From a virus: 37,911 nucleotides of DNA. The stretch lies in UHGV virus genome UHGV-0078433, one strand, 5' to 3'. Below the pieces are notes generated by a model. The model made no database searches and was not told where the DNA came from. It saw only the letters and a list, made by a program, of their open reading frames with translations. Positions 2,872 through 34,802 of this stretch are shown here, one piece after another (the stretch's first letter is position 1; each line of letters begins with the position of its first letter). A program made the translations under genes and the position numbers.

Positions 2872-5358
2872 CTACTTTGCTTCGAGATTTCCCACTCGTT
2901 CAGCCAGAGCCTCAAACTGCGATAGCAGCCTTTGATGATTACGACGATGAAGGGCAGCCTCCATCACTAATGCCTCCTCATATCGAATGCCATAGCGTGA
3001 TCCCGCTTCAACCGCCGGAACTACTACATCGCCAGTCTCTTCATCAAGAACTTCTGGTGAGCTTTCCCACTTGTCATAACAGAAGAAAGCAAACTGGTGA
3101 GGATCAAGTCCATGACGGATAAACGCTTCTTGCGCACGCTGGGCAATAATGCCGACATGCCAACGGGCTCCATCATCTCCCTTTGCCTCTATACGGTCAA
3201 TGAACTGGAACTGCACGAAATCTACTTCCGCCCAGGCATCCAGAATATCATCTGCGTACGGCGCTTCCATTAACCGTGAATCTGTCGTTTGGACGGGTTC
3301 GAGAGAACCACGAGCCAGCATCACTGGACGCGATTTTTGCCTTTCATCGGAGGTGACAGTATACGCAGCCTGAGTGAATCCGCCCGCAAATGGACTTGAA
3401 CTGGTACCAACAGTTCTGGTGTTAGCGGCGCTGGGCTGGATATTGCCGTTTACGCTCATGTTGGTGTTGATATTTACGACAGCAGAAGCAAAGCGTGCAA
3501 CTTCAGTACCGGCCGACGCTTCAGTTGATGAGACGTAGAGGCCGACAGCATTTTTACTAAGGACTGCGGTTCGGGCAAATCCACTAGAATCGCGGATCTC
3601 TCCGAGCCCAACTTGATAATCGTCAGACTGCGGGCCGGTAACGTTAGTGATGCAATGGAATACGCCACCCATTTGGTTAAACGGATCTGTCACGGATTCA
3701 AGATGAAGGCCATCTATAATGATCTTCCCGGTATTGCTACCCCCTGACTCTATGCCTACAGGGCAATTCCTTAACGTCACGTTGGTTAGTTTTTGATATT
3801 TCCTGTTCAGGCGTAAGGCAACATTGGTGTCTCTACACACAATATTGGTTACAGAACACGCCTCTGCATCACCAAACTGCCGATCACTGGCTCCGGAGGC
3901 TGTTGTTGTCTGGTATCCGGTTATTGCGTTAGCGCACTGAATATTTGATCCGTTGCAATATCGCTCCTCAATCCACACTGAAGCCCCAATTCTTCCGCCA
4001 TCATATCCGAGACATGATATATTGCTGTAATTGACGAATGGGGATTTAATATGGAGCCCGATGATGTCTGAATCAGTGGATTTAAATCGGTTCTGAATGA
4101 CTGTGATGTTTGTAACATCACTCCATACACCGCCAGTTCCACGACTGACGGTATCGCCAATGATCCCCTGCTTGATACGGACGCCAGCGCCGGGCGCTCC
4201 GACGTTACCAAAGTCTGACACATAAACGTTCGATACCTTCGGCGCCAATGACATTACGTCAACGCCTGCCCAAGGGTGGGCTGGCTCGTCAAGTTGCCCG
4301 AAGTTGAAAACGAAGATGTTATTTAATTGAAACGCGCGACTGACAGACCCATTATCCTTAATGTCGATACCATCTGCGCCGGTGTTTTCAGACCAGAATC
4401 CGTCGATGCTGCAGCCCTTATACCCGCCATTCTGAAGACCCAAGGCATAATGAGAGCAGTTCTTTACCTTGAGGCCGCGAATTGTAAGCCCCTCGATTCC
4501 TGCTCCGACAATGCCTTCAGTTTGCCGGGCGTAAGGAGTACCATTCCATAAGTAATTCCCGTCGATACAAATATCTTGAAGGCCGACGCCCCTTACTTTT
4601 GTGGTGCCGTTTTCGAGCGGTGGCTTTGACCACTGTATTACCCCATATGCAGCATCTGTGTTGTAAGCTCTTATAGTAGTAGAGTTCCATCCCTGCCCAC
4701 GGAGAATAATGTTGTCAAATGGGATGCGCAAAGCAGCAACGTTTAACGTTGCGTTGGCAGAGCTAAATTCAGTCGGATCCTGATGCACCATGTATAAGGG
4801 CCGCGGGAATACAATCGTGCCCCCGCCGGCTGCACTGAGTTCCTGCGCCTTCTGCATTATCAGTCTTGCGTTCTGCAGGGCGACAACCTGGCTAACAACC
4901 CCAGGGATTACGCCAAATGAATCAGCGGTTATTTCAATGCCACCAATTAATGACGAGCCGGTACTGGAGCTTAATCTCTGGACAAAAGAAAACGGATCAA
5001 CCAGGGAGCAATTTTCAAAATAGTATTGCTGAGCCCCATAAGCATCGTAAACAGCCATGCTGTAATCACTTTCAGTGACTATGGTTACAACCTGGCCATT
5101 ATATACTGGGTAACCTGAGGAATTAATTTTAACTGGCTGGCTGATCTGCACCAGGGAGCCATTTTCATTCCTGAAATAAACCGCTACCCTATTGGCTGGA
5201 TTTGTTGGATCCGTGTCAGGAACACCAACATAAATATTACCGTTTGCGATAGCTTTAAAGCTTCTCGGCGTAATAAATGGGATGTACGGCATTGTTACTT
5301 GCTGGTTGGCAATGATATCTGGCATTTGCTGTTCTCCAGGTGCAGAAAAGCCGCACAA
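2872..5358 (-). CDS. Tailspike: P22 gp9-like head-binding N-domain, beta-helix depolymerase-like centre, C-terminal self-cleaving chaperone (S74-type) domain
   Basis: N-terminal ~110 aa resemble P22 tailspike N-terminus (recall); repetitive beta-helix-like middle; SDERQK motif followed by ~150-aa chaperone-like tail. Confidence 0.85.
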   Translation of the reverse strand: MCGFSAPGEQQMPDIIANQQVTMPYIPFITPRSFKAIANGNIYVGVPDTDPTNPANRVAVYFRNENGSLVQISQPVKINSSGYPVYNGQVVTIVTESDYSMAVYDAYGAQQYYFENCSLVDPFSFVQRLSSSTGSSLIGGIEITADSFGVIPGVVSQVVALQNARLIMQKAQELSAAGGGTIVFPRPLYMVHQDPTEFSSANATLNVAALRIPFDNIILRGQGWNSTTIRAYNTDAAYGVIQWSKPPLENGTTKVRGVGLQDICIDGNYLWNGTPYARQTEGIVGAGIEGLTIRGLKVKNCSHYALGLQNGGYKGCSIDGFWSENTGADGIDIKDNGSVSRAFQLNNIFVFNFGQLDEPAHPWAGVDVMSLAPKVSNVYVSDFGNVGAPGAGVRIKQGIIGDTVSRGTGGVWSDVTNITVIQNRFKSTDSDIIGLHIKSPFVNYSNISCLGYDGGRIGASVWIEERYCNGSNIQCANAITGYQTTTASGASDRQFGDAEACSVTNIVCRDTNVALRLNRKYQKLTNVTLRNCPVGIESGGSNTGKIIIDGLHLESVTDPFNQMGGVFHCITNVTGPQSDDYQVGLGEIRDSSGFARTAVLSKNAVGLYVSSTEASAGTEVARFASAVVNINTNMSVNGNIQPSAANTRTVGTSSSPFAGGFTQAAYTVTSDERQKSRPVMLARGSLEPVQTTDSRLMEAPYADDILDAWAEVDFVQFQFIDRIEAKGDDGARWHVGIIAQRAQEAFIRHGLDPHQFAFFCYDKWESSPEVLDEETGDVVVPAVEAGSRYGIRYEEALVMEAALHRRNHQRLLSQFEALAERVGNLEAK

Positions 5359-5437
5359 GCTAAAACTTGCGCAGCGTGGCTACGGTTAGTTTTTTGTGAT
5401 AAAACAACTTTTTCGGAAGTTATTTTGTTCGCTTTTC

Positions 5438-5460
5438 GACCTACACTTTTTGTGTAGGTC
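5438..5460. promoter_or_regulatory. Perfect palindrome GACCTACAC-TTTTT-GTGTAGGTC, candidate operator for the adjacent Mnt-like repressor
   Basis: 9-bp arms, 5-nt spacer, between tailspike start and mnt start; no U-tract on either strand so not an intrinsic terminator. Confidence 0.35.
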
Positions 5461-5583
5461 TCTCCTTCAAGCTCATTGCCTAAGCGTGGCTACGGTTGGT
5501 ATTTGTTGCATACCGAGACGGTACCATTGTTGATTTGTACAGTAGGTTTTACGATGCCATTCCACCCATTTGGTGAGGCATTG

Positions 5584-5847
5584 ATGATGTACAGCAAATA
5601 CGATGAGGCGCAGTTCCACTTGAGGCTTACGCACGAGTTGCACGCTAAGATTAAGCAGCGTGCGAAGATGAATAACAGGTCGCTGAACTCAGAGATAATT
5701 GCAGCGATTGAAGAATCATTGGATAAACAAAGCTCTGCATCAGTTTACATTGACGATGCAGAGCGTATGGCAGAACAACAATCTGATATGGTTAAGAAAA
5801 TTGTCTTTGATACGCTCAAGGAGCTATATAAAAAAGACTGCAACTAA
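5584..5847 (+). CDS. mnt: Mnt-like ribbon-helix-helix repressor (Arc/MetJ family)
   Basis: FHLRLTHELHAKIKQRAKMNNRSLNSEII and C-terminal DAERMAEQQSDMVKKIVFDTLKELYKK resemble P22 Mnt (recall); start set at internal MMYSKYDE rather than track start 5476. Confidence 0.75.
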   Translation: MMYSKYDEAQFHLRLTHELHAKIKQRAKMNNRSLNSEIIAAIEESLDKQSSASVYIDDAERMAEQQSDMVKKIVFDTLKELYKKDCN

Positions 5848-5936
5848 CCATCCATTACGGAGGATTTATGCAAAGAGATATGCTGAATATTGCATTCTAC
5901 ATATTTGGTTTTTGCACTTTCCTGGTGTTTGCAAAG

Positions 5937-7934
5937 CTATTCTGACAACGCATCAGACTTAGCGCCTTGGGTCAGCGCGTTAATTGCCTTTTGTGCCTGC
6001 TGCAAGGCTTTCTCAAACGCTGTTGATCCGCGTTGGGTGTTTGCCATTCGGAGCATTGCATTTCTGAATGGCTCGCTCTCATAGGCGCGAGCAAGAAGTC
6101 CGTAGCTTACTGCTGCGCCAGTTGTCGCCGGGTTCATTGCCGTCCCATACCCAATAATGAACGGGATAGTTTGCTGCCCTGTGGGTGTTGTTACTGCCGC
6201 TTTTGCAGCCTGCTGCGTGGATTGCAGGTAGTTTTTTAATCCTTTCAGATAAGCAGCGTCCTGCCCCTTAAATGTGATGCCAGTCTGGTTTTGCAGGATA
6301 TTAAGCTGCCGAAGGAACTGGTCAGGGGATCCACCTGATTTCTCCATCGCCTTTCCAATGATGCCATTGCGCATTTGCGCCCTGCCAACACGGCCAACTG
6401 AGTTGTACAGCGTCTTAATTTCCGATTTGTTCTTGCTGAATAGCATGTTGTTGACAACTTCCGGAGTAAGATCTCCTTTAATGAGAACATTCTTCAGCCG
6501 GGTATTCTTTAGTTTCGCCGCTTCGTCAGCGTAGACGGCATTGGCCTGCTGATATTTACGGAGAGTATCGTTGCCAAGATTCTGACCAATGGCACCATTG
6601 ATATCGTCGGTCATCGCCTTGTAAACGCGCTGAATGGCAGCATCGGAACGGTTTGGTAACACTGGTCGCTCACCCTTCACGTCCATTCTGAACTGGCTGC
6701 GCAGATCGCTTAATTGCTTCAAGTCCAGATTTACCGGACCATCAGGGCCAGCATTGCGAACAAGCTCATCACGATATGACTGAAGTTTTGAAATGGTCTC
6801 GTTATCAGCGACCTTACCAAGCTTCTGCAGATTAGATATCTCGGTATCAATCTGCTGAATTGCTCGCGCAGGATGAATGTTTACTCCAGCCATAGCATTC
6901 TGAACCTGCTCCAGTCGATTACCGGCGGCACGACGAATTCCTGATGTTTTCGCTTTAAGGCTGTCAATAACAACTGCTGGATCATACTCACCGAATTTAT
7001 CAGCAAATCTCTGCACCAACTGGCTTCTCGCTTCCTGTTGCGTTGCTCTCATTCCGCTTGTGCCAGCCAGGGGGATATTTTCCGCTGTCGTCTGCGCCAT
7101 TTTCCCGACGCGGGAAGTAGGCTGTAACAGGTCTGTGGTGTGCAGAGGAACTCCTTCACGCTCTGCAAATCTGATAGCCTGCTGCGCTTCTGGCGCAATA
7201 GCACCACGAACGCCACGATAAGCAGCACCTAATCCACGTCCGGCAGCGTTAATAGCACCGCCAGCCAGCACACCAACGCCTAAATCGGTGGCGAGGGCTT
7301 CCGCATCATCTTTCGCACTATTTGCAGCAAGTGATCCAACTGCGTTTTCAGCGAGAAGACGAGTTGCCCCCTGAGCAATTCGACCAGCAAGTGTTGGTGC
7401 CTGTGTTGCCGCTCTCTCAATGCCAGCAGGAGTGAGGTAAGGCAATGCCTCAGCAAATACCCTTCCCTCTGTAGTTTGTGGAGTCAGCGCGCCTTGCTGA
7501 AGGCCAAAGTCCTGCTCTAATCCCTGCGTTGTTACTCGTGGCGCTGGTTGATATGTACCATCACCAATACCGAGTTTACCGCCAGCCCATGCCGCCGCGC
7601 TTGTTACAGCATCGGCAACTGATGCAGGTATGTTTGCCACGTTCACGCCAGCCTGTACCAGTCCGCGACCAGTCTCTTTTACTGCTTCGCCAAGATCAGA
7701 CATAAATCCACTTTGCTGTGGTTGTTGCTGTGCTACTGGCTGTTGTGTCTCCACTGGCTGCACTGATGGCAATGGATAGGCAGCATAGAAAGCTTGCTTA
7801 GCCTGCTCTGCATTTTCTCCGGCTTGCGGGGCCACGACTTCATTGAAGTATTGCTCCTGAGCCTGCGCTTTTTGTTCTGGTGCTAACGCCTGATACTGTG
7901 GAGAGGCGATAACATCTTTCCATGCTTTAGCCAT
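5937..7934 (-). CDS. Ejection/injection protein, P22 gp16-like
   Basis: 665-aa Ala/Gln-rich protein at the gp16 position in P22 gene order 7-20-16. Confidence 0.75.
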   Translation of the reverse strand: MAKAWKDVIASPQYQALAPEQKAQAQEQYFNEVVAPQAGENAEQAKQAFYAAYPLPSVQPVETQQPVAQQQPQQSGFMSDLGEAVKETGRGLVQAGVNVANIPASVADAVTSAAAWAGGKLGIGDGTYQPAPRVTTQGLEQDFGLQQGALTPQTTEGRVFAEALPYLTPAGIERAATQAPTLAGRIAQGATRLLAENAVGSLAANSAKDDAEALATDLGVGVLAGGAINAAGRGLGAAYRGVRGAIAPEAQQAIRFAEREGVPLHTTDLLQPTSRVGKMAQTTAENIPLAGTSGMRATQQEARSQLVQRFADKFGEYDPAVVIDSLKAKTSGIRRAAGNRLEQVQNAMAGVNIHPARAIQQIDTEISNLQKLGKVADNETISKLQSYRDELVRNAGPDGPVNLDLKQLSDLRSQFRMDVKGERPVLPNRSDAAIQRVYKAMTDDINGAIGQNLGNDTLRKYQQANAVYADEAAKLKNTRLKNVLIKGDLTPEVVNNMLFSKNKSEIKTLYNSVGRVGRAQMRNGIIGKAMEKSGGSPDQFLRQLNILQNQTGITFKGQDAAYLKGLKNYLQSTQQAAKAAVTTPTGQQTIPFIIGYGTAMNPATTGAAVSYGLLARAYESEPFRNAMLRMANTQRGSTAFEKALQQAQKAINALTQGAKSDALSE

Positions 7935-33280: not shown

Positions 33281-33988
33281 ATGGATTTGAACAAATTCGA
33301 TGAGCCATTCAGCCCTGAAGATATCGAATGGCGAATACAGCAAAGCGGTAAAACACGCGATGGAAAGGTGTGGGCTATGGTGCTGGCTTATGTCACGAAC
33401 AGGGCAATCATGAAACGCCTGGACGATGTTTGTGGCAAAGCAGGATGGCGCAATGAATACCGCGATATTCCTAACAACGGCGGCGTTGAATGCGGCATAT
33501 CAATCAGGATTGATTCCGAATGGGTAACCAAATGGGATGCCGCTGAAAACACGCAGGTAGAAGCCGTAAAAGGTGGTCGTTCCGGTGCAATGAAGCGCGC
33601 TGCCGTTCAGTGGGGAATCGGTCGGTATCTGTATAACCTTGAGGAAGGTTTCGCACAAACATCTCTCGATAAAAAGCAGGGATGGCACAGGGCAAAACTG
33701 AAAGATGGAACAGGATTTTACTGGCTCCCTCCATCGCTGCCTGGATGGGCAATCCCAGCATCAGATAACAAACCATCACCAGAAAATACCAACCAGAAAT
33801 CACCATCGGTTGACTGCGAACAAATCCTGAAAGACTTCAGCGATTATGCGTCAACAGAAACTGACAAGAAAAAACTCATCGAGCGTTATCAGCGTGACTG
33901 GCAATTAATGGCTGGCAACGAGGAGGCGCAGGCTAAATGCGTTCAGGTAATGAACATCAGAGTTAACGAACTAAAACAGGCGGCATAA
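33281..33988 (+). CDS. Single-strand annealing recombinase: Rad52/Sak-like N-domain with Erf-like C-terminal tail
   Basis: N-domain ...GGRSGAMKRAAVQWGIGRYLYNLEEGF; C-terminal ~60 aa resemble P22 Erf C-terminus (recall). Confidence 0.75.
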   Translation: MDLNKFDEPFSPEDIEWRIQQSGKTRDGKVWAMVLAYVTNRAIMKRLDDVCGKAGWRNEYRDIPNNGGVECGISIRIDSEWVTKWDAAENTQVEAVKGGRSGAMKRAAVQWGIGRYLYNLEEGFAQTSLDKKQGWHRAKLKDGTGFYWLPPSLPGWAIPASDNKPSPENTNQKSPSVDCEQILKDFSDYASTETDKKKLIERYQRDWQLMAGNEEAQAKCVQVMNIRVNELKQAA

Positions 33989-34495
33989 ATGGCAAGCAGA
34001 GGCGTAAATAAGGTGATTATCCTTGGTCGGGTAGGACAAGACCCGGAAGTTCGATACTCACCATCAGGAACAGCGTTCGCTAACCTGACAATAGCCACGT
34101 CAGAACAATGGCGAGATAAAAATACTGGCGAGCAAAAGGAATTGACTGAATGGCATCGTGTTGCTGTATCCGGGAAACTGGCTGAGGTCGTGGGGCAGTA
34201 TGTGAAAAAAGGTGATCAGATTTATTTCGAGGGAATGCTGAGAACCAGAAAGTGGAAAGACCAGTCAGGGCAAGACCGTTACACAACCGAGGTTCATGTC
34301 GGAATTAATGGCGTGATGCAAATGCTTGGCGGCATTGGCGACAGCAAACAACAAGCAGCCAGCAGGCAATCACAGAAGCCACAGCAGCAATCATCACCAG
34401 CACAACACAACGAACCTCCGATGGATTTTGACGACGATATACCCTTTGCACCAGTAACTCTCCCCTTCCCTCGTCACGCTATTCACGCAATTTAA
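33989..34495 (+). CDS. ssb: Single-stranded DNA-binding protein with 15-residue extension beyond the DDDIPF tip
   Basis: Canonical OB-fold N-terminus ([18 protein letters not shown]); ...[11 protein letters not shown] then [15 protein letters not shown] before stop. Confidence 0.9.
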
Positions 34496-34508: not shown

Positions 34509-34802
34509 ATGCCAGCGCCTCTGTATGGTGCGGACGACGCGCGCCGCTGTTCCGGCAATTCCGTATCGGAGGTGCTGGATAAATTCAGAAAAAACTACGA
34601 TCGAATAATGTCTCTACCGCAGGAAACGAAAGAGGAAAAGGAATTTCGCCACTGTATATGGCTTGCAGAGAAAGAAGAACGCGAGCGAATTTACCAGACA
34701 TCAATCCGACCATTCCGCAAAGCCACATATACCCACTTCCCTGAAATTGACCCGCGCCTGCGTAATTACCGCTCACGCTATGGCGCTATCAGTAATGACT
34801 GA
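34509..34802 (+). CDS. Hypothetical protein
   Basis: ORF track; AGGAG RBS. Confidence 0.55.

Follow-up and report, generated by a model that had tools for sequence, protein, structure and literature searches.

A conserved 15-residue peptide beyond the acidic tip of single-stranded DNA-binding proteins in enterobacterial prophages

The ssb gene at positions 33989-34495 (+) of UHGV virus genome UHGV-0078433, a stretch of 37,911 nucleotides henceforth referred to as the window, encodes a bacterial-type SSB (protein that binds single-stranded DNA) in which the acidic DDDIPF tip is followed by 15 further residues. This peptide, referred to as the tail or, with regard to the tip that it covers, as the cap, is conserved, intrinsically disordered and clade-specific, and by default enterobacterial prophages carry this gene with it. 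The canonical ends found in phages Sf6, Huey, N7 and IME10 are, as judged from the aligned genes, secondary and arose through insertion of an endonuclease gene. Taken together, the structural and evolutionary statements on the tailed SSB are made with high confidence. The best explanation as a whole, which combines the conserved clade-specific cap and the secondary endonuclease insertion with masking of the tip and a two-part C-terminal module, is held with moderate confidence, and the masking of host-partner docking by the capped tip is a tentative part of it.

The free ...DDDIPF-COOH tip of bacterial SSB is a hub through which over a dozen enzymes of replication, repair and recombination are brought in. 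Phage annealases use the host SSB tip in order to work in a given host, which is relevant to recombineering.

Results

The SSB of the window and its tail

The ssb gene is an ATG-started open reading frame (ORF) of 168 codons plus stop, and its translation product is a 168-residue SSB. Profile and structure matches, together with the translation, identify it as the "SSB-1" type of lambdoid recombination modules. The protein matched Pfam PF00436 with E=1.6e-36 and scored 166.9 bits against TIGR00621 (cut-off 53.95), and the closest solved structures were 7f2n and 1eqq (E about 1e-58), whose alignments end exactly at residue 153. All parts of the gene lie on the + strand. The OB-fold domain that binds single-stranded DNA (ssDNA) comprises residues 1-114 (33989-34330), with the Pfam SSB match at residues 6-104, and was predicted by AlphaFold as a beta-barrel with a predicted local distance difference test score (pLDDT) of 70-88 over residues 8-112. 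It is followed by a Gln/Pro-rich disordered linker (residues 115-141; 34331-34411) and by the acidic tip (residues 142-153; 34412-34447), which is internal here and aligns to the end of E. coli-type SSB structures. The codon of the tip residue Phe153 lies at 34445-34447, the 15-residue tail, recognized by translation, conservation and predicted disorder, at 34448-34492, and the TAA stop at 34493-34495. An earlier note on this DNA, made from the sequence alone, had stated that the SSB frame runs 15 residues past DDDIPF before the stop, and translation of the gene confirmed this. With 15 residues beyond it, Phe153 is not C-terminal and carries no free alpha-carboxylate.

Compared with the E. coli-type homotetrameric SSB (PF00436/TIGR00621; PDB 1eqq, 4mz9, 7f2n), the window SSB has an OB fold about 70% identical over residues 1-115 and shares the disordered Gln/Pro-rich linker and the acidic tip. 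It differs in that the tip is non-terminal with 15 conserved residues beyond it, in its shorter linker, and in being encoded in a prophage recombination module rather than as the housekeeping copy. In every tested feature but one, the non-terminal tip, it is a member of the bacterial SSB family. The window as a whole represents a podovirus prophage of P22-like type whose lambdoid early region is mosaic. It corresponds to IMG/VR contig 2740892042_000001, and its ssb is an intact prophage gene within the recombination module (Rad52-like annealase, ssb, abc2) of this P22-like/lambdoid prophage.

Recurrence of the tail among enterobacterial prophages

The same tailed ssb was found in HK75, mEp235 and mEpX2 (99.4-99.8% identical to the window), and the Salmonella phages epsilon34, g341c and NM-3 carry a tailed ssb that is 89% identical. 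The comparison with related prophage ssb genes that the earlier note had proposed thus returned the same tail in HK75, mEp235, mEpX2 and epsilon34. Viral contigs were scanned for any coding variant of the tail 14-mer, and at least 120 loci were obtained; among the matches listed, the 14-mer was fused to SSB in 94 of 120, formed the end of another ORF in 24 of 120 and was aberrant in 2 of 120. When loci were picked by the OB domain alone, 71 of the 74 resolvable ssb genes carried the tail, and the remaining three had a canonical SSB end and an inserted gene. The junction of tip, tail and abc2 was present in 409 of 5,426 complete E. coli genomes, where the gene is annotated plainly as ssb.

At the protein level, exactly 15 residues past IPF were found in 108 of the best 120 protein clusters (66-93% identity), which come from Escherichia, Salmonella, Klebsiella, Citrobacter, Enterobacter, Kluyvera, Pluralibacter and Phytobacter; SPVGLQYGKHRVYAL is an example of a diverged enterobacterial tail. 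A read-through of 15 codons is by itself not improbable by chance, and it is the recurrence and conservation of the tail that make it more than a chance event. Although housekeeping bacterial SSBs do end at IPF, the only point in its favour, the reading that a sequencing or assembly error or a frameshift had removed the stop after DDDIPF, which takes in the frameshift or read-through artefact suggested in the earlier note, has a practically negligible probability and is refuted by the same or nearly the same gene in independently sequenced phages, viral loci and the 409 complete E. coli genomes (hundreds of independent genomes in all), by residues conserved over many synonymous changes, and by diverged homologues that retain the constant 15-residue length in Enterobacteriaceae.

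As a separate observation, the 48 nucleotides of tail plus stop (34448-34495) were 100% identical in epsilon34, HZ41 and CP-1639, while the ssb bodies were only about 72-89% identical. Within E. coli and Salmonella phages the tail segment behaves as a sharply bounded mosaic unit, which fits mosaic exchange.

Sequence constraint and predicted disorder

Across the 108 tail-bearing clusters, mean pairwise identity reached 92% in the tip, 88% in the OB fold and 81.5% in the tail, and only 44.7% in the linker. P155 and L158 were invariant among the 108 sequences, and F160, P161, R162, H163 and I168 were at least 90% conserved. Position 156 was occupied by V, I, A or L, residue 160 was Phe in 105 of the 108 and Tyr in 3, and positions 157 and 159 were variable. 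The conservation of these seven residues (P155, L158, F160, P161, R162, H163 and I168) suggests that the tail may have a function beyond that of a plug.

Nine DNA sequences, among them the most diverged tails, gave a ratio of nonsynonymous to synonymous differences per site (pN/pS) of 0.10-0.13 in the tip, 0.16 in the OB fold and 0.40-0.44 in the tail. The buried tip is thus under very strong purifying selection, and it follows that the tip is not simply silenced and must still do something. The pS of the tail was 0.5-0.74, close to saturation of synonymous sites. Since the peptide is kept across genera while synonymous sites are near saturation, constraint at the DNA level (a downstream ribosome-binding site, a homing arm or gene conversion) cannot explain the conservation of the tail and was rejected. 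A programmed frameshift leading to a canonical end was likewise rejected: a +1-frame TAA is present in CCAGTAACT, yet this sequence is not kept in the diverged tails of loci L214 and L215.

In an AlphaFold monomer prediction made with a 43-sequence alignment, residues 113-168, which comprise linker, tip and tail, were without structure at a pLDDT of about 30. The tail is predicted to be disordered and would therefore act like a short linear motif that terminates a disordered arm.

Insertion of an endonuclease gene between tip and tail

Huey, Sf6, IME10, N7 and CurroJimenez matched the window ssb query in two pieces. In these phages the SSB has a canonical end, ...NFDDEIPF or ...NFDDSDIPF followed by the stop, and an "endonuclease" ORF of 155-159 residues comes next; this ORF finishes on DNA identical to the window tail. 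Alignment of the window and Huey genes showed 431 identical nucleotides, then 11 mismatches within 34420-34451, and identity again from 34450. Between the identical ssb body and the identical tail DNA, Huey has the tip in recoded form, then a stop codon and the gene for the endonuclease. At loci L221-L223 and L227 (Salmonella and others) the endonuclease keeps all 15 tail residues, including the Ala, after ...PIYPDE, and the L227 protein carries the local tail variant RHTIHAI.

These alignments place the insert between the codons of Phe153 and Ala154 (34447 and 34448), where it supplies a recoded tip and a stop for ssb and reads into the 15 codons as its own C-terminus. The canonical ...IPF ends of Sf6, Huey, N7 and IME10 are secondary products of endonuclease insertion into a tailed gene. 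The segment recoded in endonuclease-carrying alleles (34420-34449, +) is the presumed homing-site region, and it is uninvaded in the window. The endonuclease gene is present or absent at this one precise site in near-identical backbones, being found in 3 of the 74 OB-matched loci, and the target next to the insert is altered, with the 11 mismatches clustered there and none in the preceding 431 nucleotides.

The Sf6/Huey-type proteins matched the PHROG 2340 "endonuclease" profile with E=4e-39 to 3e-47. Depositors label the homologues HNH, and a CxxC...HH...CxxCHxxxH motif is visible; an HNH assignment through Pfam, NCBIfam and PDB sequence searches was attempted and abandoned, as these searches gave no match. 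Seven of the nine family members examined lie directly 3' of ssb in unrelated phages from several genera, namely in Huey (L001 1978-2445), Sf6 (L002 1984-2463), a Yersinia phage (L129 1501-1929), two Vibrio phages (L130 1201-1626 and L231 1204-1653), a Pararheinheimera phage (L131 1204-1653) and Skarpretter (L229 1201-1587). In Bacillus phage BCP8-2 (L230 1084-1623) the family member stands between two ORFs both annotated as DNA polymerase and appears to split a DNA polymerase gene. Klebsiella phage phiKp_30 (L007 about 1851-2054) holds a gutted copy in the same slot, unannotated in the record, which keeps the first 9 codons (MKICSRCH...) and the last approximately 22 codons around an internal deletion. 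Together these features suggest that the small Cys-rich PHROG 2340 family is a homing-endonuclease lineage targeting the conserved 3' end of ssb, with a putative His-Me finger (HNH) nuclease fold and putative homing activity.

Free-standing homing endonuclease genes of phages insert beside or inside conserved genes, as in the intronless homing of the T4 mob and seg genes. The Sf6/Huey insert resembles that system in its precise-site polymorphism, the flanking substitutions, the decayed copy in phiKp_30 and the polymerase-splitting relative in BCP8-2. It is unlike T4 mob/seg in lying inside the 3' end of the host ORF, in restoring a canonical end, and in having the displaced 15 codons fused to the endonuclease. 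At least the Sf6/Huey-type "HNH nuclease" of lambdoid recombination modules looks like a mobile insertion in ssb and not like a designed member of the module. That the extension evolved to destroy the homing-endonuclease target may hold for its origin, but this idea leaves the amino acid conservation unexplained, and tailed alleles were invaded anyway. For Sf6 gene 26, a GenBank note records "14 contiguous amino acids identical to E. coli SSB", which evidently refers to the tail peptide.

Direction of transfer

Four observations show that the tail belonged to ssb and was captured by the inserted endonuclease, and not the reverse. The homologue of Yersinia phage vB_YenM_30.14 (62% identity) ends ...PIYETKAA, the Pararheinheimera homologue ends ...PIYS and the Vibrio homologues have a short unrelated end, so that members outside this phage group end with ...PIY plus 0-5 residues. 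The PHROG 2340 profile stops at residue 139 in Huey and 143 in Sf6, ahead of the tail. Tails on SSBs are far more diverse and taxonomically wider than the endonuclease-linked copies, and the latter carry the local SSB variant, including the Ala. The junction codon in Sf6 and Huey is GAA, as against GCA at the SSB junction, and extant copies therefore cannot yield the GCA of SSB by simple deletion.

The reverse history, in which the tail was native to the endonuclease and an in-frame deletion fused it to ssb, would account for the identical tail DNA with which the endonuclease ORF closes in Sf6 and Huey, and a partly deleted endonuclease gene does exist in phiKp_30. Since the tail is foreign to the endonuclease family, a deletion scar of this kind is considered highly improbable.

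C-terminal extensions on SSBs of other mobile elements

A scan for DDDIPF followed by Ala-Pro or Ser-Pro, with one genome per species, returned at least 120 loci, against approximately 26 chance matches expected by our own estimate. The scan contained at least 83 SSB ORFs confirmed by hidden Markov model (HMM), with extensions of discrete lengths between 5 and 16 residues. Extensions of 15-16 residues were found in Enterobacterales (Proteus, APIGLPYPHIAIHII; Xenorhabdus, APIGKQYPGHSIHII; Tatumella, APIGLQHPAHFIYSI) and of 14 residues in Alteromonadales and relatives (APIGLQYPALLSVM and APMGLECRRMLHCI). Pseudomonas extensions had 9 residues (the APLHHLAGA family) or 11 residues (APISRLLLNII), that of Psychrobacter had 8 (APHFDGQF), and those of Rhizobiales had 5 (APEWR, APEVR).

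A sample of viral contigs anchored only on FDDDIPF also gave at least 120 loci. Among the matches listed, 84 of 120 ORFs end at this motif and 36 of 120 continue (29 new loci and 7 re-listed E. coli-type loci), and the HMM-confirmed SSBs among the new loci listed comprised 39 canonical and 23 extended proteins. The statement in the earlier note that phage SSBs normally end exactly at DDDIPF therefore fails for a large minority of mobile-element SSBs. The first extra residue was Ala in 19 of the 29 new extended loci listed, and the first two were Ala-Pro in 14 of the 29. By the genetic code, an Ala codon cannot be reached from TAA or TGA in one base change, and simple stop-codon loss thus does not explain this bias.

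Outside the enterobacteria, extended SSBs were found in mobile-element surroundings: with ERF and YqaJ; with RecT and ParB; with an integrase, RdgC-FtsK-gamma and an exonuclease; and with an element-borne DnaN homologue and DUF2303. SSBs of proteobacterial prophages and integrative elements carry many families of short extensions past IPF, of which the enterobacterial 15-mer is one. The strings PVTLPFP, DIPFAP, DDIPFA, IPFAPV and IPFAPL occur in no paper of the searchable literature, and the Sf6 GenBank note was the sole earlier trace encountered; capped tips seem to be common among mobile-element SSBs without having been remarked on. It is conceivable, and somewhat doubtful at this breadth, that SSB caps are a general strategy by which proteobacterial mobile elements coat their own ssDNA, withhold it from the host SSB-interactome and maybe show a private motif to a partner or protease, with an endonuclease homing to the ssb 3' end toggling the cap off.

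Two of these loci had further features. In Rhizobium sp. Root1203 (L240 2904-4031 and 5901-6410) a full-length homologue of DnaN (the beta clamp) and a gene for DUF2303 lie approximately 2 kb from the extended SSB, and the locus is apparently a mobile element with its own sliding clamp. In a Rheinheimera metagenome-assembled genome (L267 about 5100-6700), the 3' end of an extended ssb is duplicated in tandem, the copies ending ...APMGLECRRMLHCI and ...APMGLECWRMLHCV, each directly before a stop, and both copies come with a downstream lipoprotein-like gene.

Proposed function and competing explanations

According to published structures and mutants, partner pockets take up the hydrophobic end of the SSB tip and fix its carboxyl end through an arginine. 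In RecO this residue is Arg132, and binding of the SSB C-terminal peptide is abolished by the deltaF177 and P176S changes (PMC3152348). The proposal of the earlier note that the extension may block recruitment of host SSB-interacting proteins is, by analogy, compatible with this published biochemistry. With Phe153 internal, the alpha-carboxylate that host partner pockets anchor via arginine would be removed, and canonical docking of host partners should consequently weaken or vanish. The phage SSB would then coat ssDNA while recruiting ExoI, RecQ, RecO, PriA and chi weakly or not at all, and phage recombination intermediates may thereby be shielded, in line with the adjoining anti-RecBCD gene. 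Because tip and tail are both under purifying selection, the C-terminus is read as a putative two-part module made up of the acidic tip and a tail motif, P-(V/I)-x-L-x-(F/Y)-P-R-H...(I/L). The tip could be kept for a role that needs no free end, such as intramolecular binding to the OB fold, binding of a phage partner or exposure after processing, and the tail motif could contact a partner or control turnover.

Several results weigh against this proposal in whole or in part. The strong conservation of the buried tip opposes simple permanent masking. Constraint on the tail is weaker than on the tip or the OB fold. The AlphaFold model, at a pLDDT of about 30 in this region, showed no contacts between tail and OB fold and no docked conformation, and docking of the tail on the OB fold was dropped as a candidate for that reason. 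Sf6, Huey, IME10 and N7 are viable isolates though their SSBs lost the tail by endonuclease insertion, which makes the tail dispensable in some conditions at least. Close relatives in Enterobacter (loci L224-L226) end at IPF with neither tail nor endonuclease, and tail-less forms therefore exist in the clade. Finally, apart from a frequent Ala-Pro start and a hydrophobic end, the extension families of different orders have little in common, so that no single common partner is evident.

A different function would follow if the main role of the tail were binding to a specific partner, such as the beta sliding clamp via PVTLPF, with masking of the tip being incidental. The canonical clamp-binding hexapeptide is Q-phi-x-[L/M]-x-[F/L], in which the Gln is important but not essential (PMC11139829). 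Residues P155-V-T-L-P-F160 agree with positions 2, 4 and 6 of this hexapeptide and so does the conservation pattern, and one extended SSB, that of Rhizobium, lies near an element-borne DnaN homologue. However, position 1 lacks the Gln and is occupied by a Pro (P155) that is invariant in 108 of 108 sequences, P161-R162-H163 is equally conserved without being a feature of the clamp motif, and APLHHLAGA, APEWR and APHFDGQF of other lineages do not fit it. A docking motif of this kind as the main function is considered unlikely.

A neutral appendage, which an old stop-codon loss or recombination junction would have left as a tolerated and functionless peptide, would be in keeping with the viability of tail-less Sf6 and Huey, with a tail pN/pS of 0.4 that exceeds the values of tip and OB fold, and with the predicted disorder. 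It does not accommodate a tail that is far better conserved than the adjoining linker (81.5% vs 44.7%) with several invariant or nearly invariant positions, nor a length strictly kept across at least 8 genera. The Ala codon that opens most extensions is likewise out of reach of TAA or TGA by a single-base change, and other orders have distinct, internally conserved extension families. The probability given to a functionless tail is accordingly low.

The tail could also act as a degron, with ...RHAIHAI-COOH targeting the protein to ClpXP or another protease, or as a pro-peptide that is clipped after Phe153 to free a canonical SSB. ClpX recognizes two classes of C-terminal degron, ssrA-like and MuA-like (PMC12723719), and ...RHAIHAI only loosely resembles the known examples (ssrA-like ...LAA and MuA-like basic ...KAI). 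The extensions of most lineages do end in hydrophobic residues, the tail forms the C-terminus of SSB and of the unrelated endonuclease alike, in the manner of a portable tag, and clipping would account for the conserved tip; the conserved core P-x-x-L-x-F-P-R-H, however, lies away from the extreme end. To our knowledge, no protease cuts between Phe and Ala-Pro here, which counts against the pro-peptide form. Proteolytic targeting or processing is an improbable role for the tail.

Under the preferred explanation of a conserved cap over a retained tip, a natural class of capped SSBs in which cap and hub are both conserved would give ready-made separation-of-function variants, and the Huey and window genes form a natural uncapped/capped pair over an otherwise identical ssb sequence. 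That mobile elements insulate or redirect their ssDNA intermediates is a testable idea. Annotation pipelines label capped proteins simply "ssb", and the cap should be heeded where prophage SSBs are borrowed for recombineering designs.

Relation to described recombination modules

According to the parts consulted of a 2025 survey, "SSB-1" of lambdoid recombination modules (Sf6 gp27, ES18 gp48) had not been studied experimentally, and the neighbouring HNH genes were treated there as probable module members with their apparent mobility noted; those parts make no mention of a C-terminal extension (PMC12315714). The SSB-1 proteins of Sf6 and ES18 and the window SSB are of the same family, share the position between the annealase gene and abc2, and have OB domains 75-100% identical. 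They differ in that the Sf6 and ES18 proteins end ...IPF, because an endonuclease gene sits immediately downstream, whereas the window form is uninterrupted and tailed.

In HK620, the Sak4 annealase needs the last residues of its cognate phage SSB (PMC5928155), a precedent for such dependence of a phage annealase. HK620 resembles the window in having an annealase-ssb-abc2 operon, but its SSB is not homologous to bacterial SSB and has a free NDYPPF end, and tailed SSBs pair with Rad52-like and Sak4-like annealases alike.

Gene neighbourhood

The gene directly upstream of ssb in the window (33281-33988, +) encodes a Rad52/Rad22-family single-strand annealing protein (Pfam PF04098, E=7.2e-26), and its stop abuts the ssb ATG; an annealase gene is also annotated directly upstream of ssb in HK75, Sf6, Huey and epsilon34. 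Downstream, the anti-RecBCD gene abc2 (34509-34802, +; Pfam PF11043, E=5.6e-63) begins 13 nucleotides past the ssb stop. In other genomes, tailed SSBs are preceded by Rad52-like (PF04098) or AAA_24/Sak4-like (PF13479) recombinase genes and followed by abc2, an Rv2179c-like exonuclease gene or unrelated genes. These varied neighbours on both sides ruled out that the tail is bound to one annealase or to abc2. The possibility that the tail is a remnant of P22 abc1, or is common to any gene upstream of abc2, was also rejected, the C-termini of P22 Abc1, HK620 SSB and HK97 gp40 being unrelated to it.

HK97 gp40 (L220 1393-1782), an SSB-like protein encoded in the same slot, ends ...YDDSNPILI, in which an acidic stretch leads into a hydrophobic end that differs from IPF, and may represent another way to build a non-canonical SSB tip. 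Between ssb and abc2, the slot is a hot spot for insertions. In ES18 (L008 2010-2531) it holds a different endonuclease, annotated as similar to T7 gene 7.7 and without the tail, and in epsilon34 (L003 2016-2564) and phiKp_30 (L007 2055-2603) a gene for an Rv2179c-like 3'-5' exonuclease begins a few nucleotides past the stop of the tail.

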